A stretch of DNA of 64,000 nt from Schmidtea nova (GCA_044892505.1 CM097882.1:558868001-558932000); one strand, 5' to 3'. Counted from the first letter of the stretch, positions 8,043 through 63,544 are shown. Notes: generated by a model from the sequence alone, not told the origin. Made by a program: numbers and translations.

Positions 8043-11000
8043 TGGTGGGTTGTTGATCGTCAGTATGACCTTGACGTGGCTATGGCTCGCATCAACAACT
8101 CAACACATAAAACATTGAAATTACCACCTTGTTACCCGTCACTATGTAACGTTGGTACTGTAACAAGTGGGTGGGTATTCGCAATCAGTGAGCGTCGTCA
8201 ATACGAAACTATGATTGACCGAATATCTCCTGGGTCCAAGGGCTACCGATGGAAGGTTTCTTGCCCATTTTTGTCCCTTTTATCTACAAGCCTTCAAGAA
8301 GATTTAAATCGGTAATTCAAAATAAATAATCTACATCACTATAAGTTCCTCACTGCATCAAAAGGAATTATTCTGAATATCAAAACTCTAACGAAAACAT
8401 TAAATTTTGTTAATATTACAGTCTATGATAATTAATAAATAAAACATAATTTTTAATCTACATTTAAAATTTTAAAACTTTTATTTTTATTTGACAAATA
8501 GTAATTTTATTATCAAATTATAAAATAATAAACTTATTGTTTAAATTTACTAGTGTATATTTAAAAAACAGAACATGATTCAAATAATATATTCAAAGTA
8601 AGCTAAGTGTTACAAATTACTCTATTTAATAACAATTTTAAAGGTCATACTAACTAAGAAGGTCGGCACTTACGGCAAACACAACCATACATGGATCCCA
8701 AAGAAACATCAAAAAGTTTGGAACTCGATAAAATGCCAAATACGACTGCCAATTCGGTTGAACGATTAATGTAATTATCTAATAATTATTATTTATCTAA
8801 TTAATTTTAATTTTAGAAAACTTTGAATAGGAAATGCGTCGGAATCCGGCGTTGCAAGGACTGCAAGAAAATCATTGTTGGAGCTGTCTATACTGATGAT
8901 ATTACTGTTGATCGTTTGCGATTTTGTATTATCTAATAAAGGTTTTAATTCATATTTTGCTTTTTATATGACTGAGAATATGTTCGGTTTGGTGTTTATT
9001 CATAAAAAGAAATTCAATTTAATTTGCGAGTGTGGTAAATTTAGGCCTGGATGGATTTCCTTAGGGGTTATGTTCAAAATAAGGGTAGTTTGGTTGTACC
9101 CACAATTATTGATGTTGGCCAAAGTTTTGTGTAACTTGAAGATAAACGTAACAGGATGGATTAGTGCCTTTAATTCCTGGACGTGGTATGATGTAAATGA
9201 TATATTTAACGGATGAGATGATGCGTTTGAGATGAATGGTGATATAAAATATTGTGATTTGAGATGAATTGATGAGATGAGGTGTAAAATTTTCAAATTT
9301 ATCCGTTTTTATACTTTTATGGGTGTCACCTGAGTTTTCATTGTGGTGATTGTATGTGATTGCATGTTGGTTTAGATTTATAGACAATTTCCTATTGGGG
9401 TGATTTTCATGTATGTTTGCTATTATAGATAGGTGGTGGATTTTCTATTGTTGTGGGTGCGTGTGTTGGTGTGTTTATTTGTCTGGTGGATGAAATAAGC
9501 GGTGTGGATATGATGAAGTGAGTACCTGTATGGATGTATGATGCTAACTAACATGTCTGTGTGGAATTTTTGGTATGGTTTGCCTGTGTGTATGTGATTG
9601 TTGAATGTTATTGAATGATACTATGCATGTGTGTGTATTGTGTTTTATATGTATGTTGTTTGTGTATTAGTATGGATGATACTATTGAGTGAAAAGGGTG
9701 TAAATTTTTGCAATGAGTGATGTAACCTTATTTTTGAGATATCGTGGGGGGTTATATTATTAAATAAATTATACAAAATATTTTTTAAAGTTAAAATAAT
9801 AAAAAAAAATTTTAAATTAAACTAATAGTAATAATTTTTAAATCAAAATAATAATAATAATTTTTACAATACTTTTACGGATTTTTAATTTATAATTTTA
9901 TTAAATGATGATAAAATTTATAAGTTTGATAATATAAGTTTTTGAACTTAAATTTTTATATTTTACGAATTAACTATATTAGTCTTAAATTTTCATTTTA
10001 TAAAATTCCGAATCCAAATTTTTAAAAAAAAAAAATTAAAAATTTACTAATATAATAATAAAATTCCAATTTATAATTTTTATGGGGTTTAGTACAATTT
10101 TTGATTTTCAGATTCTCGGGAATTTTGTGAACTGATAAAATCTTTTAGATATCAACAATATTAGGAAAATTCTTGGTTTATGATTTTTCATTTTAAAATT
10201 TTTTCAATATAATAAAAAGCAAATTTTTATTCTTGATCAAAATGAAATAATAATAAAAATATTCTATCCATGAATTTCGAGCTTTAAATAGGCATTTAAT
10301 CTAAGAAATTTTATATGCTAAATAAGAATAAAATAAAAATAAGTTATAAAATTTTTCAACGAATATTTCTAACCTCAAGTAAAGTAAATTTCGGTTTTGT
10401 TGAGCATGAATTTCCCAATCAAAGTACACGCGAATTTTTCGGGGCACTTCACTTAGGAATTTCAGGCTCTCGAAAAACAAGATTCACCGAAAAACTTATT
10501 TAGACCATAATGAGCTTTAATTCAGATTAAATCAATACTTGGTTCACAATTTGTTTCACTTCATGAGCATTATTCTAGACTTGAGCATTGATTCGAACGA
10601 TTTTCTTTTCATCATTAGCATCCATTTCTCTTGCATTTTTTCATGAGATGAACGTTGTTGAGAGTGTGAAGGTGAAGGTGAGTACGAGTCGATTTTTAAT
10701 TAGTAATATTTCCTATTTTAGATTTCAAGATATGAGTTAGTTGCTATGTTATATTACGAAATTGCTTATGTAGATAATACAAATATGATACTCTATTATA
10801 ATAAAAATCATTAGTATAACAAAACCTTGCTCTTGGCCAAACCGCGATTCCCCAGTTGGGATGACGCGAATTTGGATGTATGAGCCTCACCTTAAAGTGG
10901 AAATATGGGCTGGCCGATTACCAATCAGACAACGATCCACCCAGGCTACTAACAGATCCGCACAACCAAGGCTGGACGGATCGTCAGAAGATATGGGAGA

Positions 11001-12147
11001 AAAAAAAATTTTTATTTATTTTCATAATTTAATTTAGTTTACCAATTTCAATGAGATTTTTCCTGAATTATTTTGGGAATTTGTGGCTCGTGATAATGAT
11101 AATGACAACAGAAAAAACTAAGCTACTAATCATGAAAATACTTTAATAATATAAAATTTACCATAATAAATAAAATAACAAATAACATATTAAATAAAAG
11201 GGGGGGGGAATGGGATGATCGTCAGGCATGATGGACGACCATTCCAATCCCCAATGAAAATAACCAAAATCAAACAAATCCTTACGTTTGTCCAATTAAC
11301 TTCTGCTGCGATTTCTTTCTAACAAAATAATTTTTTCTTAGAAATTTGGAACGATTTTTCCACAAATTTTCTTGAAATCAACTTCTGATAGTAACTTCTT
11401 GAAATCAAATTCTGATATTAACTTTTCTTCTTGCAATCAAATTCTCAAGTTAGGTTTCACAAAAATTATTTTTCGCAATTCCTCCGCAAATTAACAAGAA
11501 AAATTTTCCACAAAAACTCTGAAATCTGCCATTTTGATGGCGGTATATATACCATCAAATTTTCCCTATCTCCGGTAGTGCAATAAAACAAATTGTTCTA
11601 GAATTTTCTCTTAATTTTTTCTAAATTAATTCCAATGATTTTTCGAAAGTTAATTCCATATTTTTGTATAATAATTTTTTATAAACTATAAATAATTTAT
11701 TTTAATTAAAAATTTTATGTTTGAATCGAAATTTGTTCGATTTGATTTAATTTATGATTTTCGATCCATATTAATTCTTTCTATTGTTATATGTGAAATT
11801 TTGTGATAAATTCACAATTTTCCTCTAGAATTGTGTTAATTTTTCTGCACTTGAAGGTTTATGACAAAATTCTGTTCTTTATGGGCATTCTCCATGGGTT
11901 TTTTGCCTATTCTAGCTTCCAAACATTCTGCTTTTAATTTTTCTCGCGATTTCAGTGAAAATATTTACAAATTCGCAGTTAGCGCGTACTCTACCGGTTG
12001 CTGTGTTTTGATTCATCTTCACCTTTTGATGTTTTCCGCTTAATTGTTAGATTTTTAATGGCAGCTAAGGCTAAAAATGGAATCTTGCGCGTTCTCTACC
12101 TATTGGGTTATCGTTTTATTAAAACAAATATGCGTTTTGGCCCAACA
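8043..12147 (-). mobile_element. modular repeat family, copy A (blocks X, spliced mini-gene, GT-rich block, Q, R, P, spacer, terminal module)
   Basis: Blocks align by eye with 12150-15384, 16370-19169 and 42250-45150. Homology ends at ...TTTTGGCCCAACA (12147). Confidence 0.7.
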
Positions 12148-12149
12148 AA

Positions 12150-15100
12150 TAAATAAATAAATTTTTTGCTTCCGTACCATCTGAAGCCTGTTTCTGGCCT
12201 TGTGCCGAGCGGGTGGAAGTAGCCTGAGCGGATCGCTGGTTCGATTCGTAATCGATCAGCCCATATTTCCGAGTCCAGGTGAATAGCCCAAACATCCATG
12301 ATCACTTCATCCCAACTGGGGAACAGTGGCTTGGCCAAGGGCAAGTTGTTATATTAATGATATTTGATTTATAATAATGTAGTTTATCTGAATTTATAAT
12401 TCTAACATATTCATAATTAAAGATTGATACAATATATAAACGTAAAGATGATTTTCTCCAGTAATGTCTTTTCCATTATGAAAAATAATTTGTGCAAGAA
12501 TATTTTACTCGTCGTTCACCTTCACTCTCACAACAACTGTCATCTTATCGTAAAACGCAAGTAAATGGAAGCTAATATTGAAAAGAGAATCGTTTGAAAT
12601 AATGCTCAAAGATGATATAATAATTACGAAATGAAATGAATTATTAAGACAAGTATTGATTGATCTGAATTGAACCTCATTCAACATCTAAATATGTTTC
12701 TCCAGTGAACCTTGTTTTCGGGAGCCTGAAGTTCCTTAGAGTGAAGTGTCCCGAAAAATTCGCGCGCACTTTGGTTGGGAAATTCATGCTCGAACGAAAC
12801 CGAAATTCTCTTTACTTGATGTTAAAAAATATTCTTTGAAGAATTTATACTTATTCTATTTTCATTTTTATTTAGTATATAAAAAACTTTTTAGATTAAA
12901 TTCCTATTTGGATTGCGAAATTTGTGGATAAAAGTTTATTATTTCGTTTTGATATAAAAATAAAAATTTACTTTTATTATATTGCAAAAATTTCATAATA
13001 AAAAAATTGAGAACCAAAAAAATTTTTTTTTTCAAAGAATTTGTAAATCAAAAATTATATCGAACCCCATAAAAATCACCAATCGAAGACATTGTTATTA
13101 TATAAAAGATTTTGTCATTTTATAAAATTCCTAAGAATTTATAAATCAAAACTTATATTGAAACTCATAAAAATTATAAATCGAAAATATTATTATTATA
13201 TTAAAAATTTTATCATTTTATAAAATCCAAAATTTCGAAATTTTATAGAAAAAAATTTACAATTAATATATATATTCTTAAAATATAAAAGTTGAATTCA
13301 AAAATGTATATTATAAAAATTAGAATTTTTATTATTATATAACTTTCATAAAATTATAAATTTAAAATTTATAGAAAGTATTATAAAAATTATTATTATT
13401 TCAATTCTAAAGAATATTTTATATAATAGTATATTATAACTACCCCACGATATCACAAAATCATAATACATCAATATTTGCAAAAACTTACACCCATTTC
13501 ATTCATTAGTAACACCCATATATAATACCTTAGAAAAATTCATTCAAACATCAACACACATACTATATCGTTTTACTCAATAGTACCTAACTGCATCAAA
13601 ACCCATAAAATACACACCCAAAAATTCATTTGATAACGCGTGTCTGCATCACACATCCAGAAAAACCATACAAAAATTTCATTCACTTGCATCTATCATT
13701 CAACCATACCATCTATAAAATTAAATATACCCAGCCAAACCTAGTGCAATCAAACAAGCCATTTACATTATAGTCTTTCTAATTTTCAAATTACCAAAAT
13801 TATATAAAAATTAATAAATAATCAAACGAAAAAGAGTAAAAACGAAAAAATTTTCTAAAAATTTATTGATCAAAATTGACGGTCATTCCGTTTGAGGAAT
13901 AAAAATCTCCGACAAGGATTTTTCTTGTTTGCGGTTCTGGAGGGACCGGGTTCCTCGTATTCTTTTTAGGAATTTTTCTAAATTCGTTTTAAATAAATTA
14001 TAAGTCCAAAATAATCATAATTTTACCTTGTCGACAAAGTTGGCAATTTTGCTTCGTAGAAGCTGGAATTCCAGTTTTTTGACCCATTTTGGATGGGAGA
14101 ATTTTTCTCTGACCTCATAGCTGCTTGGGATATCCATCTTTTGTTGGTCTGATCTTTAAAAATCATTATTTAATAAATTTAGTAAAATAATTCATAAACT
14201 TACATTTGAAATCAATATGATTTTTGAATTGAGTTAATTTGTCCTTTAGATTAAAGTAGTAATTTTAAACAAAAGGAAACTTTATTTTTATTATTTCTCA
14301 ACTTGATAAAATTACTGTAATAATTAAAGTTTGTCTTAAATTTCAAATGCAGATTAAAATTTTTCTGTAAAAATAAAATATTTTATGTATTAATTATCAT
14401 AAATTGCAATATTGGTGAAATTTAAGGTTTTATTAGTGTTTTTGATGTTCGGAATAATTTATTTGGATGCAATAATAAATTTATAGTTGTGTAGAATGTT
14501 TATGTTGAATTTCCGATAAAATTTTGTTGAATGCTTATAGTTAGATCCTTGAAGAAGGGACAAAATGGGCAAGAAACCTTCTATCGGTAGCCCTTGGACC
14601 CAGAAGATATTCGGTCAATCATAGTTTAGTATTGACGACGCTCACTGATTGCGAATACCCACCCACTTGTTACAGTACCAACGTTAAATAGTGACGGGTA
14701 ACAAGATGGTAATTTCAATGTTTTATGTTTTGAGTTGTTGATGAGAGCCATAATAACGTCAAGGTCATATTGACGATCAACAACCCACCACCTTCACTAG
14801 TGTAGTAAAACAATTTGTTCTAGAATTTTCCTTTTAATAATTTTTTTTAAAATTAATTCTAATGATTTTCCGAAAATTAAATCCATATTTTTGTGTAATA
14901 ATTTTTATAAAACACAAATAATTTATTTTAATTCAAAATATTTATTTTTGAATCGAAATTTATTCGATTTGATTTAATTTACGATATTTCGATCAATATT
15001 AGTTCTTTTTATTGTTAATGTGAAATATTTTGATAAAATCACAATTTTCGGCTAAAATTCTGTTAATTTTTTCTGCATGAAGGTTTTATAACACAATTCC

Positions 15101-15384
15101 GTTTTTTATGGGTATTTTCAATGGGTTTTCCGCCTATACTAACTTCTAAACGTTCTTCTTTTGACGGCATTTGATTTTTCTCGAGGTTTCAATGTAAGGG
15201 CTTTCAGACTCACAGCTAGCGCGTTCTCTACTGGTTGATGTGTCTTGAGTCCACTTCACCTTTTGGTGTTTTCCACTTAATCGCTTGGATTTTTAATGGA
15301 TTTTTGGGTTAAAACTAAATCTTACGCGCTCTCTACCTATGGGGTTATCGCTTTATTAAAACAATTTGTAGTTTTTGCCCAACA
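12150..15384. mobile_element. modular repeat family, copy B (P, R, Q, AC-rich block, mini-gene, X, terminal module)
   Basis: Inverted, diverged counterpart of 8043-10990. Ends ...TTTTTGCCCAACA (15384). Confidence 0.7.
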
Positions 15385-16369
15385 TTATGTTAATTTTAGC
15401 TTTAAAAATTTAATTACGATTAAGAATTTAATACTGTTTTCAGATTTTAGAACAAATTGCAAATTAGGAAATTGAACCTCAAACGTTCCCAGACAATATT
15501 TCGCCGACTACAGGCTCTACAAAGAAAAACTATATAAACCGGTTTCAATATTTGACCATTATTATTGGTTAATTTATGTTATGGGAAAATCAAATCTCAT
15601 AATATAATTATTGATTTCTAAATCTAAATTTAGAAAAGGATTTCCCCCGATTCCCATTTAGTTTATCGGTAAGTTGATTTAATTTTACTCCTATATGATG
15701 CTTCACTTAGAATTTAGATATCAGTTTTGAATGCTATTTGCCCAGAAGAAACTCTCAAGATGGACCGTTCAAAAAAACAGAATGGTAAGTAAACTAAGAT
15801 TTTAAATTATCTAGCTTTTCGTATTTTAACTTTAAAATTGAAGATTCCGTGATTCTCTCGTTGGCATTTATCTCGTCAAATGAAATCGTACAAGTCATTC
15901 TATCGCGATATTTATGACTATCTGGCAAATGATCCTCTCGTTTGGAATTAAAAGAAAAAATTTTGATCAATCTCTGTTATTATGTCAAATTTCGGTTTCT
16001 CCAGTAATATATTGAATTAATGTTGTTTTCATTTTTGTTTCTTGGTCAAGATAATTTTTTTTGTTAATTCTAATTTTTTGTATGAGTTAATTACGCTCCT
16101 ATATTAAATATTAATTTTGTGGAATAACCATCTACGTAATAAATGTTCTGAGTTACGCTATACTCGGTAGATTTTTGTCATGGCAATACACTTCCCGAAT
16201 TTAATATACCATTTTGGCAGCATTTGAGTAAATAGCAAACTTATAAGATTTAGAGTTTTATTTATAATATTATGATGATATAACCCAAAAAAATAGATTA
16301 GCAACAAAAATAGTAATTTACTAATGGAATCATAACTATAGGAAGTTACCTGTTGCGAATTTGTAAATC

Positions 16370-19169
16370 GAATATCTTATTAGAGATGTAATGACGAGTT
16401 TGATACTGTGAGGATTGCATGCATGGGATGAGAACGAGTAGAATGGGTGGTTTAATGATGAATGTGGATGAATGAATTTCTCGAGTAGATTTTATGGATG
16501 TATGATGCAGATAGGTACTATTGAGTGAAATGATATAGTATATGTGTTGATGTTTGAATAAATTTTTATATGGTATTATATATGGATGTTACCAATGAAT
16601 GAAATGGATGTTGTGATTTGCAAAGAGGAATTTAATGGTTAATTTAAGCTGATTTTCACGAAATAAATTATGGATTTTAGAATTATATAAATGTGCAGAT
16701 GTATTGTTAAAATTCTTATAAATTTTTTGTAATTTATTAAAAATTAATTTTCCGATTTTTAGAGAAATATTTTATGATATTTAAAATTTTGATTTTGATT
16801 TTTACATTTTAGTTTTAAAGTCTATAATACACAAATTTTAATGATAAATTAATGATATAAAAATTTACAATGAAATCCTGAAATAAAAATAATTCCATAA
16901 AATTTTATAAAATAATAAAATTCCTCAATAGCCAGTTTTTTTTAACAAAAGAGAAATTCTTGCAAACTTCTTGAAATTAATTTTTCGACTTTGAATTTTA
17001 TATAATATTCAACATTTTCTACGTTCATCTTCTACAATTTAAATTCTAAATTTTATAATGCGAAATCTTTAATGATAAATTCAACACATAAAATTTATAA
17101 TGAAATTCCAAAATAAAATAATTCAATAAAATTTATAAAATAATAAAATTTTCTAAATAACAAAATTTTTCTTTCATCAAAATTAACTCCAATTCTAATA
17201 CCTTTTGGGTAATAATATTTTGAAGATAGGATCTTTACTAGCTAGATTTCGTTCGTATGCGAATTCTTCAAGCAAAGTGCACTCAAATTTTCCATTACAC
17301 TTCGCTTGAAGGCTTCGAATAACCAAAATTAAGTTTAGGAATAAAATAAATTTTATACTTTTTAAATACTTTCAGATAGAATGAGGTTCAACTGCAAATT
17401 TATTTTTCTTCATATCATCTAAAAAATCTGAGCAATTCTTTACTTTTAAAACTGTGATTTTCAGACGATCTGAGAATTCATTTACGAGCGATACGAAAAG
17501 ACATTTATTAGAGCGAAGGCAAAATGACGAGGATCGCATGTTTTCTAGCATCTTTTGGCATTTCCACATTTTGTATATTTATAAGTCAGATTTTCATATA
17601 TAAAAAAAATAGTTACAGTGTTATAATAATAATAACTTTACTTTGAACAAAACATTGCGCTTGGCCAAACCACTACTCCTCATATAGCCAAGCATGAGAT
17701 GAAGCGAGATTGAATTTGTGCACCCACTTCGATGAAAAAATGGATCAGAACGCTGAAAGGACTCCAGCGAACTAATGATACACCAAAGCGACTAATGGCG
17801 GTACAACGACTAGGTGGACCACCATTAGACGTATGGAAGAGTCATTAAAACAAAATTTCATAATTTAATGAATAATATAATTTAATTCGAATATTTTAAT
17901 TTAGGTTTGATAGTAATCTATGGGTGAAATGTGCAGGTTTATTCAAAGTGAAATTTAATTTCTTGGCCTAAATTTTATAAAATATGAAATAATAAAAAAA
18001 GTATAAGAATACAAATAAAATAAAATAATAAATAAAGTTTTAATTATTCAGAATTAACTTAAATTAATAGCATAAATCATAAAACATAATTATAATAATA
18101 ATATTAGTAAAGAAAACAAATACCACTTCGGTTTGTGGGGCATGACCACTAAACCAAATATTCAAAAATTACTTTTAATATTCTAAATCTTCCGACGTAA
18201 TTTTGTCAACCGTGCTCGTGTGATCCTCTATGCCAATTAAATCTGTTGCAAACTTGGACCTTTTCCGGATCTTTGTGGTAAAAGGTAAACGTATTCAGGG
18301 GTCTGTTCAGCAATCAAATCAGAAAATTTCTCTTGACGGGATCAATTGGTTCCTGCCTTGACTTTAATAAAATTTTAGGAATGGCAACCGCAGAATTCTC
18401 TCTTCTAAAAATAAGTGTCGAAAATTAAGTGTGAAAATAAGTGTAAAAATAAGTGACAAAATAAGTTGACAGAATAAGTGACGAAATCCATTTTGATGGC
18501 GGTATATATAGCTGTCTAAAATGCTACTTTCGTTGTTGTATTAAAACAAATTGTTCCAGAAGGATTTTTTCGATTCTTGAAAATTAATTTCAATAATTTT
18601 ACGCAAAATTGAATTATTATTTTTGCATAAAATTTTAAATAAATCCTAAATAATTTATTTTTGATCTAAAATTCCATTTTTAAATCAAAATTTTTCCTAA
18701 TTTAATTAATTTGTCATGATTTCTAACTAAAACAATTTTCTTTCATGTTATTCGAATTTTTACACTAAAATTTGAAAATTTCCTCGAAACAAGATGTTTA
18801 TTTTTTCTAGTGTGCTATTCTATTACACAATTGATGTTCTCACGCTATACAGGTGTTTTTCACGTATACACTCAAATCGCTTTTGTTCGTTTCAATTTTT
18901 CAACGTATTTTGACCGATTTTTTCATGTGTTCTACTGCTACTGGGTTGTATTTAGTGTCTTAGTGTCTTAGTGGGTTCATAGAATCTCAAATCTACTTCC
19001 TCGCGCGCTCTCTACATATTAACGCGCTTTTGTTTACCTTAAATTTTGGGCGTGTTTTCACTCAACTACTTGGGTTTTTAATTAATGTTTTGGTTAAAGT
19101 GGAATTTTGCGTGCTCTATACTTGTGGTGTTATTACTTCATTCAAACAATTTGCAGTTTTGGCCCAACA
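16370..19169 (-). mobile_element. modular repeat family, copy C (more diverged)
   Basis: GT-rich block 16380-16620, Q-like 17230-17320, P-like 17655-17835, TATA-hairpin at 18488, terminus ...TTTTGGCCCAACA at 19169. Confidence 0.65.
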
Positions 19170-19977
19170 CTGATTTATCAACTAAATTGACTTTAACTCA
19201 TTTGTTAACTCAAACTATTTCTTCATACAACTATTAAGATCACACATTCATTCAATACATCTCAATTTGGAACGCTTATTTGGCAACAGAAACATTCATT
19301 AAAATTGAAGAAATAAAATGTTCTAAAATTCCTAAATTCAAATATCGTTTTATTGCAATTATTTTTATGCCACTGTTGGGCTGGTAGAAGTGAGGTTCAA
19401 TTTTTGTTTTAGTACGCCAAAAATTAAATACATACAAAAAAAAGAGGAGGAAACTTTGATTACGAAAGACCTGCGTAAAACTTTCATACAAACTAACACA
19501 CACTTTATTTATCGATAATTTGATAACCCCATTTAGTTATATTCTCCATGACATTAACTGATACAATGAAATAAAGAACATAAACGAAGTACATAATTTA
19601 TTTAGAACAAAACATAACAACTGAGTAGGTTATACAAGAGAGCGAACCTTGGAAAGCTGGGTTTTGACTAACATTTGCTGTTTAGCGGACATGACATTGG
19701 AACCACGCTTTGATATGATCCCAATAAGCAAATTTCCGACTGGATCATCAATGCCAAGTCTAAGCACAAAAGTTGTTGAATCGAGTAAGAAATGTCTTTG
19801 TTTTTGTTCAGTATAAATCCTGCAGTAGGGCTAGATAATCAAAGATAAATCCCTCATTGATACCCTTAAGTACACTTGCAGCTAATAATCCCTTAAATTC
19901 ATTGTCTTAAATCGGAGGCGTCAGAGTGGATCATTACGTATTGATTGCCGAACAATTCATCAAAAATATCACTTTAA

Positions 19978-20362: not shown

Positions 20363-23300
20363 CCAGTTTTAATGCGATGAAATTTTCCCACTCGATAACT
20401 TAGGATATTTGCATACTTTTTCAACTAAAAAATTTAGATAAGGTAAAATAATATTACATTACCAAATTTTGATACTTGTTAAAAAGGAAATCGGCTGCAG
20501 ACTTTTTTTCAAAATTCCAACTTAAAAATAAGTCTATCGACCAATAAATTACACTATAGAAGAAAAGTTTACCATAGTATAATGCAGCCAATCGGATTGC
20601 AAGTATGATACAAATGGGCAAAAAGCCTAGAACTTTTTTTCTCATATAGATTTATATTTATCATAAAATAGGTGTTAGACACAGGAAAATAGTCGAGAGA
20701 ATCGAAATTATTGATGATTACATAATAGGAGGGAAAATATATAGAATAAAAATTAAATATAGAATATAAAATAAAAATAGGGAAAATATATAGATAGACG
20801 AGGCAATATATAATTTTTGGAGGAACAATATCATCAAGTAGTGTAACTCTCCATGGAACACTCCGTTAATATTCCTAGCGAAGAAAGAGAAACAGGATAT
20901 TAGATTGTGTCTAGATTTCAGGCAATTAAACCTAATAGCGGAGAGACAAGCATTTCCAATGCCAAATATAGCAGAGATGTTAGAAAACTTGAACGGAGCA
21001 ACGCAGTTCAGCTCAATTGACTTGAGTAATATGTACTACCAAGTGGAACTAGGCGAAGAATCAAAATAGAAGACTGCGTTTACAACAAAAATTGGATAGT
21101 ATTTTTTCAATAGAATGCCTTCTGGTATCGTAGCTGCACCAGGAACGTTTCAGAAACTTATGTTGAAAGTATTACAGAATTTGGAGTGTATAGCAGTGTA
21201 CCGAGATGATATATTGATATTCACGTATTTAATAAAGCAACACTACGAGGTATTAAAGGAAGTTTTGAAAAGGATAAGGAGTGCAGGGTTGAGGATTAAT
21301 CCATAGAAATGCCACACATTGAAAATTTAGGTTAAGTTTCTTGGGCACATCATTAACAAAGATGGTATCCAGAATAATCATTCTAAGAAAGAAGCAATAA
21401 AATCATTCAACAGACCAAAATGTGTAAAAAACTTAAGAAGTGTTTTGGGAATATGTAATTATTAAAGGAGGTTCATAAAAGAATATGCAGAGAAGTCAAA
21501 GGCACCGGAAGAACTTTGTGGTAAAAACAAGGAGAAAAAACTGGTTTGGGCGGAAAGATGTGAAAGTTCATTTGAGGATATGAAATGCTCGTTAACATTA
21601 TCACCAGTACTAGGGTTCCCAGATTTCAGAAAAGAATTTATTCTGGATACTGATGCAATTCTATCTATCGATCGGTGCAGTTCTATCTCAAGTGGATGAC
21701 AAAGGAAACGAGAAAGTAATAGCTTATGGTTCACACGCAATCAATAACCATAAGAAGAGATACTGCATAACGAGAGAAGAATTACTAGTTATCTACTATT
21801 TCTGTCAACACTTCAACCACTACCTATATGGAAGAAGATTTACATTAAGAACGGACCACAAAGCTATCACATTTATGCTAAAAACAAAGAAACCGAACTG
21901 CTCAATTCCAGGCATGGATAAATCTTTTTAGTAGCTATGATAAATATTGAATATAAAAAGGGCTAAAAACATTCAAACGCTGATATGTTTTCTACGAACG
22001 TGTGTGAAAAATATACACAATGCTTGACGTCATATGAAGATCCCAAAGACAGTAAAATAAAATCTCGAAGGATAAATGCGGTGAGCAGCGATGAAATAAT
22101 TAAGTAGCAAGAGAAAAATGCAGAAATAATAAAGATAAAAGAAGAAATAAATCGCGGTGCGAACTGGAAGTTTGTACTCGATAACAATGTAGTAAAAGCT
22201 AAGGAAGGAAAAACATGGATTCCAAAAGATAATGAGCCCGGAGAGGATATAAATGCGGGAATAGAGAAAAGAGAAAGTAATGACATATTGGATACAATTA
22301 TGACATGAAGAATATGAAGGAGATAATTAGAGAGGCGAATAAACAATGTGAGCCGATTCAAAGGGTAAAAATAGTAACAACAGCAACAAAGGAAGAAACA
22401 ATGAAATTTTCAGCAAGTGAACCGTTCGAGAAAATATACATTGATATATGTAACCCATTACCGGAGACTTCAGAAAGAAAAATTATATTGTGGCAATAAT
22501 TGACCAATTCAGTCGATATAGAGTTCTAACACCGATTTCAAAACAGGACAAAGAGACAATTAAAGAAAAAATCTTGAATAAATAGATACTAAAGTTCGGA
22601 GCAGTGAAGGAGATCCATGTTGATTGCGGGAAAGTATTCGAATTTAGTTCAATCTCAAAGTTGAGAAGAACAATGGGAATAGAGCTTTGTTTTTTGAAAA
22701 GCCCATATAATCACAACACAAACTGTGTCATAGATTGGCAATTTAAAACAATAAGTGATTACATAAATTTATCACTAAAGGATAAAAGGAAAACATACTG
22801 GGCAGAAATTCTCCCAGAGATATAGTTTACAATGAATGCAACGGTACAGAATGCGATTGGGCAAAGTCCAGCAGAACTGATCTTTGGACGTGGATTATCA
22901 ACAAAACGAGAAGAAAGACGATCATAAAAGGAATGCAGAAAGTTACACTAGCAAAGAGATTATTCGACATTGAGGAATATGTACTAATCAATGTAGAATC
23001 CTGGGCTAAAGACAAAGACAGATATGAAAAGGTGTCTCAAGTTGTGCAGAAAATTCATGACCTGTGTTATCTATTACAGGATAAATCGGAAATAACAATA
23101 CAAAGAAATTTCGAAAAAATGAAGAAATTCCTTAAAGAGGTGGGATGTGAGAGGACACGTTTTTAAAGACAATATCGTTATTTTCAAAATTTTAAATATT
23201 CATTTAAATTGTAATATAATTTATGAATATTAAAATATTTGATTAGATTGTTTAAACTAAAAATGTTAAAATTTTAAAATAGCATTTTTTTAAAAATAAT

Positions 23301-23983
23301 TAAATTTGAAAATATCGATTTGTCTTGAGAACAAAAATAATTGTTTATATAATACAGAATTGTTTAGACATAATTTTGGATTGAATAAATTTTCAAATTA
23401 CGAATGACTTCTGATATTTAAATAACTCTTAAGCTGACAATTTTATTGCAGCTAATAGGTATAATCATATTTTATCTTAATTCATAGGACAATTGATAGT
23501 GATGAGATTTACGTTAATTCGTGATACCGACTTTTCAATTTTAGATTAAGTTTTCACCAACAAACAAAAATGACAGGGAAATTAAATGACCGTGAATCTA
23601 TATTCACCTTAAACAATTAACTGTGGGTATATTGCGCAACAAAGTGGGTATTTAGGTAGTGATTGATTTTAGCTAGTTTAAGCCTTGAGTACCATCGATA
23701 TTATTTGAGTAATAATTTAAATTATCACACTTGAATGAGTATATCATCAAACGGAATAGTTTTGTTTCTGGACTTTTAGGAATGTTGTTCAATTTAAGGC
23801 ATAAATACCAAATGAATAAAAATATATTGAGTTCTTAAGTTTAAATTTGGCTCGGGTTTCCAATTAGCCAATTAACTCTTAATTATTTTTTAATTCTTTT
23901 CTTTTGAGAAACTCCAATTAATTTTATTTTACAATTTTTGGAATTGTCTTTCTATTCGGCATACAATTATACTAATTCCCCCG
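20363..23983 (-). pseudogene. possible decayed PIG-Q/GPI1-like gene (GPI-GlcNAc transferase subunit) with a Gypsy insertion in an intron
   Basis: A 55-nt GT-AG intron (23932-23878) joins IERQFQKL|VNWLIGNP, compared with PIG-Q ELQHLLQWLMGAPAG. Downstream exon-like pieces give ALYY|VGILKKSLQPISFLTSI and KKYANILSYRV (cf. GKKWNVLRQRV) in the expected order. Frames are not continuous across all junctions. Confidence 0.35.
20850..23166 (+). pseudogene. decayed Ty3/Gypsy pol (RT - RNase H - integrase)
   Basis: LCLDFRQLN (about 20903), MPSG...YRDDILIF, ILDTD, YCITREELL, FTLRTDHKA, PFEKIYIDIC. Many stops and frameshifts. Confidence 0.9.
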
Positions 23984-62218: not shown

Positions 62219-63544
62219 CAGAACCGGATTAAACTTTTGTAGGCCTGTTTTAGAACTATAGTGTAGGCCCCTTAGATGCTTGCAGAAACATATAATTGTA
62301 AACGGGTATAGTTGTTGATTGCCTTTTACATTGTTGTTTTTACTTATTGCGTAATAAGTTTACATATATAAAGTACTAATATGTTTACGAAATATAATTA
62401 CATTTTTAATGCCAAAGAATGTTATAATATAATATAATATAATTTTTATAATGTTATAATGCTATAATATAATATAATATAATTACAGGTCCTATGTTGT
62501 GCATAATGTTAAAAGTCTCGACGACGCGACTTAATTGCTGAGAAAGAGTCAATGATATCGTGAAAGTCAAGGCTTTGGACTGCTTAATCTTTCTTGAGCC
62601 AGGGTTGATCTTACAGCATTTTTAATGCGTTTTAAATGACTGAAGGAGCGTTCGCCGCTGCAGTTAGAAACCGGCAAAGTTAGATAAATGCGCAAAGCAA
62701 CATACACATTTGCAAATCCTGTCTGAAGATTCAATTCATTCAAAAGTTTCAACATTTCAAGTGGTGTTTTCTTTGTCGGTAATGATCGCATTTCTTTTAG
62801 AAAAGTTATCCACTGAATCCACTCATCACAGAGTTCATCAGTGACATCATCAGAGTAGAATTCCACAAACAATTTCAAAGATTCCATTCTTGCAGTGCTG
62901 TTTTCATCATCCGCATATAAAAAATAACAACGATCGTCGATTGCTTTATATGCTGCAATTCTACGGTTAAAATCGGTAACAAGTGAATCAATTATAACAT
63001 AATAGGTATCAACTTTGAACTTCTCTTCACCCGTTAAAACAACAGCTGATTCATTGCTATCGTCCGCTCTGCGTTTTGGTTGACGTGCGCGTTTTGTTTC
63101 GAATTTCTTTTCAGAGCACAATTCTGCAGCGCTATCTCGATAAAATTCAAACTTATTCCTCTGAGATGCTAGAAATTCCGACAATGACTTCAGTAGTCCT
63201 ACTGCAGTGCACAGATCCATTTTTTCTGATTGCAACAGCTGGCTTATATCATTTATGCGTTCCAGAATGGTATTCCAAAAACACACCAAGAACACAGTTT
63301 CCAACTTATCCATGACATTCGCTAAATTTGTTGCTTCTGATCTCGCTTCTTTCTTTTGCAAACTGTTGCTGCCAATTTCTCGCAAAACAGATTGGTAGGT
63401 TTTATAGTGCTGATACATACTTTGTAGTGAAACAGCATGAGCAGACCACCGCGTGTCACTCAACCGTTTTGGAAGTAGTGCAGACTTTGACTTATCCGTG
63501 CGATGGTGAAGAATAGCACCTTTGTATAATCTTGGTTCGAACAA
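62219..63544 (-). mobile_element. 5'-truncated hAT transposon (ZMYM1-like transposase C-terminal half plus 3' TIR)
   Basis: ORF 62567-63544 contains LSDTRWSAH and the hATC dimerisation motif LTLPVSNCSGERSFSHLKRIKN. Terminal CAGAACCGGATTAAAC at 62219. Confidence 0.9.

Follow-up and report, generated by a model that had tools for sequence, protein, structure and literature searches.

A 4.1-kb repeat family in Schmidtea nova as the probable long terminal repeat of a giant retroelement

Introduction

Giant long terminal repeat (LTR) elements of animals have been described mainly from dugesiid planarians, according to the available part of PMC6431247. The same source describes one of them, Burro, as longer than 30 kb and coding for a single polyprotein with Gag, MATH, PF11976, BCL2, envelope (Env), protease, reverse transcriptase (RT), RNase H, integrase, BIR and ankyrin domains, and mentions an upstream accessory open reading frame (ORF) in one species, in the element of Dugesia tigrina. 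In the present study, we have analysed 64,000 nucleotides of Schmidtea nova (GCA_044892505.1 CM097882.1:558868001-558932000; hereafter the window), a stretch of AT-rich, intron-bearing eukaryotic DNA with nine scaffold gaps, in which a family of multi-kilobase repeats had been predicted from the sequence. Our analysis suggests that the repeat unit is, in all probability, the 4.1-kb LTR of a giant LTR retroelement with a Burro-like build. No description of this family was found in the literature at the level of titles or abstracts, and the available parts of PMC13238120, PMC8532177 and PMC11410931 add no structural detail.

Repeat unit and termini

The original prediction described a collinear series of blocks (block P and block Q among them) shared by several copies, each copy lying next to a separate terminal module. 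Self-comparison of the window bears out the common series far above chance. The module, however, is not separate but the first 600 bases of the unit (referred to below as the front module), and together with the blocks it forms a single collinear unit of 4105 bases (~4.1 kb). Eight copies or fragments of the unit are present in the window (copies A to G and B', Table 1), four of them clustered together, and their nine segments amount to 14,394 bases, or 23% of the called sequence. Three of the four long copies predicted earlier (A, C and D) and all of the predicted fragments (E, F and G) are confirmed, whereas 12150-15384 is not one copy but two in opposite orientation, B on the plus and B' on the minus strand.

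Identity between copies is 58-84% over long stretches and at most 91% in short blocks. Counted along copy A from 12147 on the minus strand, positions 1-2543 align with 42250-44839 in copy D (62%, E 1e-162), 1127-2617 with 12147-13659 in copy B (68%), 3257-4104 with 13899-14789, also in copy B (72%), 1-603 with 15384-14767 in copy B' (80%) and 950-2584 with 18036-16474 in copy C (58%), the front of which aligns too. Between the front module and block P, copies A, C and D are homologous and strongly diverged. The last 200 bases of A and B are 93-97% alike, as against 59-86% further in, which fits either a constrained end or gene conversion.

The unit has well-defined ends. It starts with TGTTGGGC in all four copies whose front is preserved (A, B', C and D), the flanks being unrelated, and finishes with CAAC.CACCA in each of the three copies that reach the end (A, B and F), beyond which the sequences diverge; a TG start and a CA end are thus found as in an LTR. 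The front modules point to the left at 12147, 15384 and 19169 and to the right at 39908, 42250 and 52287, so that the minus copies are all located left of the plus copies and no inward-facing pair exists in the window. Behind copy A, a primer-binding site (PBS) and an ORF with a protease are found on the same strand as the repeat. Termini, orientation, PBS and protease ORF all support one of the two earlier options, multi-kilobase LTRs of a giant retroelement. The additional suggestion that these are solo LTRs does not extend to copy A, which, with a likely coding partner adjoining it at 1-8032 on the minus strand, is a 5' LTR. No purine tract precedes the TG at any of the four starts, and therefore none of these four is a 3' LTR.

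Nested cluster

Copy B begins at 12148, next to the first base of copy A and about 1127 bases into the unit, while its natural CACCA end at 14790 abuts copy B', which is itself cut at position 594. Both junctions are exact LTR termini. Copy B' is nearer to A (84%) than to D (74%), and the next blocks of B are nearer to D (90% and 81%) than to A (77% and 76%); because of these differing affinities, B and B' look like different subfamilies. The simplest history is that B was inserted into B' and the element of copy A subsequently into B, in which case the sequence that B and B' have lost should be located past the far end of copy A's element. Such nested insertions would mean that these LTRs are targets of their own family.

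Alternatively, 12148-15384 could represent one LTR with an internal inversion and a deletion, or a mis-join in an assembly that has nine gaps in the window alone, and inverting everything behind the front module does yield an identical order of parts. We consider this improbable, as it leaves both breakpoints coinciding with exact LTR termini and joins two parts that apparently belong to different subfamilies.

Nesting of B' in copy C was also considered and dropped, since 15385-16370 shows no similarity to the corresponding stretch of A or B (score 40, null 36+-5); copy C is a neighbour, outside the nest. The stretch between B' and C carries exon-like segments with two GTAAGT donors (15440-15950, plus strand), with no Pfam match and no homology to the LTR. 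Decayed frames for Gypsy-type RT, RNase H and integrase are located at 20700-23200 on the plus strand; this is opposite to the strand of copy C, and they are therefore not its internal region.

Coding region behind copy A

Only copy A is followed by the PBS-like 18-mer in the window. Its first nine letters are identical to the start of PBS-Pro as given in the available part of PMC10602909. This nine-mer has a single occurrence in the window, where 0.05 would be expected, in a test that was made after the sighting. The whole 18-mer probably matches the 3' end of a tRNA-Pro.

The strand that carries the PBS and the ORFs is A-rich in both the leader (0.41) and the 960-codon ORF (0.46), and the latter runs for 2.9 kb uninterrupted by introns, unlike the host gene in the window. 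The protease match lies on the sense strand and above the Pfam cutoff (PF00077, E 3e-5), as is usual of an LTR retrotransposon, and ankyrin repeats are also identified (E 2e-10). In the 966-aa frame, the SUMO-like domain (residues 245-293) is followed by the protease (343-435), and the hydrophobic stretch near residue 910 is located 50 residues before the window edge. The visible part of the element is 12.1 kb long with no RT in view. As the LTR (4.1 kb), the leader (5.1 kb) and the ORF (2.9 kb) all come before any RT, a full length of more than 20 kb is expected. Part of the leader (2900-4200, minus strand) resembles a decayed charged coiled-coil frame with many stops, and immediately precedes the stop-free 960-codon frame.

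No relatives were found for the polyprotein among 7999 longer candidates, nor for residues 225-470 among 602 candidates of near length, and in a search of all proteins the best 150 of 2296 matches all fell in the ankyrin region, with no relative of the non-ankyrin part. Viral and metagenome contigs gave no polyprotein relative, and the Atlas scores did not exceed 0.79. These negatives are weak because eukaryotic repeats are poorly covered. The first 26 bases of the LTR were matched by none of the metagenome contigs. A single-sequence structure model was unusable (pLDDT 32).

Provided that the repeat is an LTR, we are confident that the ORFs at 1-5455 belong to the element of copy A. They might instead be foreign, joined to the LTR across the scaffold gap at 7464-7768, or represent a domesticated Ddi1-like protease gene, the LTR family then being non-autonomous (similar to large retrotransposon derivatives) or an ordinary Gypsy. 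The lack of a detected Gag favours such a view, and a ubiquitin-like domain with a retroviral-type protease is the layout of Ddi1 too, to which weak matches exist. However, both ORFs are on the PBS strand, the 2.9 kb without introns are unlike the intron-split host gene, leader and ORF are A-rich on the same strand, and the domain set is that of Burro in the available account (PMC6431247), which together make either of these views distinctly unlikely.

RNA structure and coding potential of the repeat

The blocks had been predicted to vary in a codon-like way and to ferry decayed genes, with no transposase or RT among them. Three-base periodicity of mismatches is absent from 23 of 25 block pairs, and the other two (p<0.05; p about 0.02, uncorrected) both involve copy F. 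Only 38 of 252 indels, summed over pairs that are not independent, are multiples of three, and the lowest pN/pS ratio over 36 frame tests is 0.46. On these figures, codon-like variation is not supported. The absence of transposase and RT agrees with our Pfam scan, in which 18 frames over five stretches of the LTR copies, the part of the blocks covered, gave a single match, below the cutoff. No frame above 129 aa is listed in the copies; one of 128 aa starts in the last 100 bases of copy D and reads out of it. The idea of decayed genes in the blocks is thus mostly lost, there being no coding signal and block Q being better explained by RNA structure. One small antisense mini-gene may be an exception: copies A and B have homologous sequence in this region (score 96, null 34+-5), which contains an intron-like AT-rich segment and may be a decayed antisense gene. 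A sub-cutoff match to ribosomal L37ae in this region was treated as chance.

Each front module of the four intact copies contains the same 12-mer twice, at position 49 and at 153-155. It has 11 matches in the window as compared to 1.28 expected, and ten of them are located within copies of the family. Together with a TATA-like box, the front 600 bases look like the promoter-bearing U3 region.

Block Q folds better than shuffled sequences on the LTR sense strand, with z of -5.0 in A, -2.2 in B and -3.6 in D. The 28 pairs predicted from copy B alone are kept as 28/28 in A, 25/27 in D and 25/28 in C. In copy C, block Q is only 56% identical, and the 23 substitutions in its arms include seven two-sided changes; retention of 25 pairs compares with a null of 16.4+-2.2 (p about 1.5e-4) and with 6-13 in slid controls. 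The count of 19 G-U against 3 A-C cells points to the sense strand as the structured one. These changes point to selection on the sense RNA, as expected of a retroelement, without assigning the block to U3, R or U5. Stable folds are also predicted for block P of A and C, but as they differ from copy to copy we propose no common fold. Nor is the LTR structured throughout, since in a sliding scan the number of stable windows was similar in a host intron (2/37) and in the LTRs (3/36 and 3/37). The covarying stem-loop of block Q is a candidate for a packaging, dimerisation or export signal within a multi-kilobase LTR.

We propose that the conserved blocks of the LTR are cis-acting signals, namely promoter motifs and RNA structure, rather than cargo genes, and that the true captured cargo is found in the internal region, namely the RING ORF together with the ankyrin repeats and the SUMO-like domain.

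Several points weigh against the LTR interpretation or parts of it. For the element of copy A, the window contains no second LTR, target-site duplication, polypurine tract, RT or integrase. The spacer between LTR end and PBS is 10 nt, longer than the usual 0-3 nt, and 305 unsequenced bases lie between the PBS and the ORFs. Neither a Gag family nor a CCHC knuckle was detected in the ORF or in three leader frames (these 305 bases of leader being a gap), the SUMO-like match (PF11976, E 0.005) is below the cutoff, and the best solved-structure matches of the protease are to cellular Ddi1, although not significantly (E 0.08). The hairpin test, whose stem columns were chosen after inspection, is significant for copy C only (p 0.10 in A and 0.27 in D), and the junctions of the nest are known from the assembly. 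Four small sequencing runs of one study contain 44-53% of the words sampled from 7800-17500, with no RNA data set among the listed holders, a coverage that we do not count as evidence.

The other earlier option, non-autonomous Pack-type DNA transposons with 600-bp terminal inverted repeats (TIRs) and captured gene pieces, fares much worse. The inverted front module of B' behind copy B does resemble a right-hand TIR, and the possible spliced mini-gene inside the unit would suit captured cargo. However, the same unit end is followed in A by the PBS and in F by unrelated DNA instead of a module, B' is cut at position 594, and the blocks combine a lack of coding signal with RNA structure on the sense strand. 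Moreover, three modules between 8 and 19 kb share one orientation, and because inward-facing inverted repeats at both ends are not found, the TIR reading is ruled out within the window; overall we regard it as very improbable. Least credible of all are pseudo-LTRs of a Penelope-like element or split repeats of a tyrosine-recombinase retroelement, for which adjoining direct and inverted partial copies are typical, given the TG...CA termini, the PBS, the aspartic protease and the lack of a hammerhead or any other Rfam family near threshold in 2900-9700 and 10000-19600.

Features of the window

The coordinates of the features are given in Table 1. Copy E is interrupted by an element (40135-49300) with inverted ends of about 115 bp (80% alike), which is inserted in a TA run, contains copy D and carries a broken integrase frame (PF00665, below the cutoff) with a cysteine-rich tail. 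Directly behind copy D, 45150-49250 contains part of a gene for a protein-primed DNA polymerase B (PF03175) along with small ORFs and short tandem repeats, and by its look is presumably the end of a Maverick/Polinton. Copies E and D are located just upstream of the start of the host gene (~39570-26700, minus strand), for which the single relative listed, at 50% identity, is a protein of an annelid that contains PDZ and arfaptin domains; we take the host gene to be PICK1-like.

A compact LTR element of 3.8 kb at 53031-56811 (minus strand) has short end repeats (92% over 106 bases) and a stop-broken coding region with CCHC Gag and RT. An inverted pair of about 270 bases (23847-25423, 70% alike) and a dispersed repeat of 420 bases (24472-24891 and 61685-62095) are unrelated to the LTR family. 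A hAT transposase fragment (PF05699) is found at 62567-63544 on the minus strand and a tandem repeat array at 59247-59776.

Table 1. Copies of the repeat unit and associated features, in window coordinates
Feature	Position	Strand	Description
Copy A	8043..12147	-	complete 4105-bp LTR, TGTTGG...CACCA; 5' LTR of a leftward-reading element, with PBS and ORFs on the same strand
Copy B	12148..14790	+	LTR from position ~1127 to the CACCA end; front lost at the first base of copy A
Copy B'	14791..15384	-	front 594 bases of a different LTR, which stops where the last base of copy B begins to abut it
Copy C	16370..19169	-	divergent LTR, start intact, without the last third; left end approximate
Copy D	42250..45150	+	start intact, truncated past the skewed block; within the TIR integrase element; right end approximate
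Copy E, first part	39908..40114	+	front module of an LTR, first part
Copy E, second part	49360..49701	+	split from the first part by insertion of a 9-kb TIR element into a TA run; both parts contiguous in copy G
Copy F	50797..51150	-	last 350 bases of an LTR, CACCA end, no PBS behind
Copy G	52287..52735	+	front-module fragment
Primer-binding site, tRNA-Pro type	8015..8032	-	starts 10 nt past the shared LTR end
Scaffold gap	7464..7768	.	305 bases, between PBS and ORFs
Accessory ORF	4973..5455	-	intronless, 160 aa, C-terminal RING finger (PF13920, E 1e-13)
Tandem repeats in leader	3648..3929	-	unit ~21 nt, read from the sequence
Intact 960-codon ORF	2..2881	-	open at the window edge; weak SUMO-like domain, retroviral-type aspartic protease (DTG), ankyrin, acidic linker, hydrophobic stretch near residue 910
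Possible decayed two-exon antisense mini-gene	8691..8940	+	counterpart at ~13900-14200, minus strand; open frames disagree between copies
TATA-like box	11546..11551	-	LTR position 597 in A (660 in C, 605 in D), downstream of the repeated 12-mer
Block Q stem-loop	10370..10500	-	on the LTR sense strand; also 12695-12830 plus, 17215-17345 minus and 44020-44155 plus

Proposed life cycle

Standard LTR biology, applied to the termini, orientation, collinearity, PBS, same-strand protease polyprotein, junction positions and RNA stem-loop observed here, suggests the following cycle. A sense RNA would be driven by the 5' LTR and its reverse transcription primed by host tRNA-Pro at the PBS, while the polyprotein would be cleaved by its protease; RT and integrase would be located past the left edge of the window. 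The cDNA would then integrate carrying two LTRs. Copies would have built up as insertions recurred, and on two occasions the target would have been an older LTR of the family itself, B' for copy B and subsequently B for copy A; truncation or formation of solo LTRs would have come later.

A bolder and rather doubtful possibility is that this family represents, in a spiralian animal, a second lineage of giant retroelements that may carry an envelope. Its domains would follow a new order in which no recognisable Gag precedes the protease, and the promoter of its LTR would lie only about 600 bases in. If so, R and U5 together would span ~3.5 kb and contain small antisense genes as well as conserved RNA structures, and an exceptionally long strong-stop DNA would be required for the first strand transfer.

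Comparison with known elements

The cluster is real, and is mostly ordinary LTR debris of a giant retroelement family that looks undescribed. Similar to Burro and GYPSM1, the giant Gypsy-like elements of dugesiid planarians and its nearest known counterparts, it involves a giant LTR element in an AT-rich genome (PMC6431247, available part). It also shares with Burro, in a likeness judged from the description in that source, the protease, an upstream accessory ORF, tandem repeats and the accessory set of ankyrin, RING and PF11976 SUMO-like domains, the last being below cutoff here. In contrast to Burro, RING is present on a separate ORF, and Gag, MATH and BCL2 are undetected. The order reported for Burro is Gag with CCHC knuckles, MATH, SUMO-like, BCL2, Env and protease (PMC6431247, available part), whereas in the present element the protease directly follows the SUMO-like domain, with ankyrin and the hydrophobic stretch behind it. 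This single stretch, close to the window edge, is the only Env candidate. An N-terminal Gag with two or three knuckles, as in Burro, is missing from the ORF and the three leader frames. Because both Gag and domain order disagree, the element is not filed as Burro, and for a Burro-like kinship the chances appear evenly balanced.

Among plant elements, Ogre of dicots is comparable in that its LTRs range from 1.9 to 6.5 kb, which includes the 4.1 kb found here, and in having extra ORFs of unknown function; it differs in its plant lineage, and the available part of PMC6431247 mentions no ankyrin, RING or SUMO-like domain for it. The mammalian ERVP retroviruses have the nine-letter start of PBS-Pro in common with copy A (PMC10602909, available part), a likeness that concerns the primer tRNA alone and implies no kinship. 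The present element is distinctive in its domain order, the missing Gag and the covarying stem-loop. The same types of captured domain as in Burro, in another order and without a relative in the collections searched, would bear on how such polyproteins are assembled and on the provirus question.

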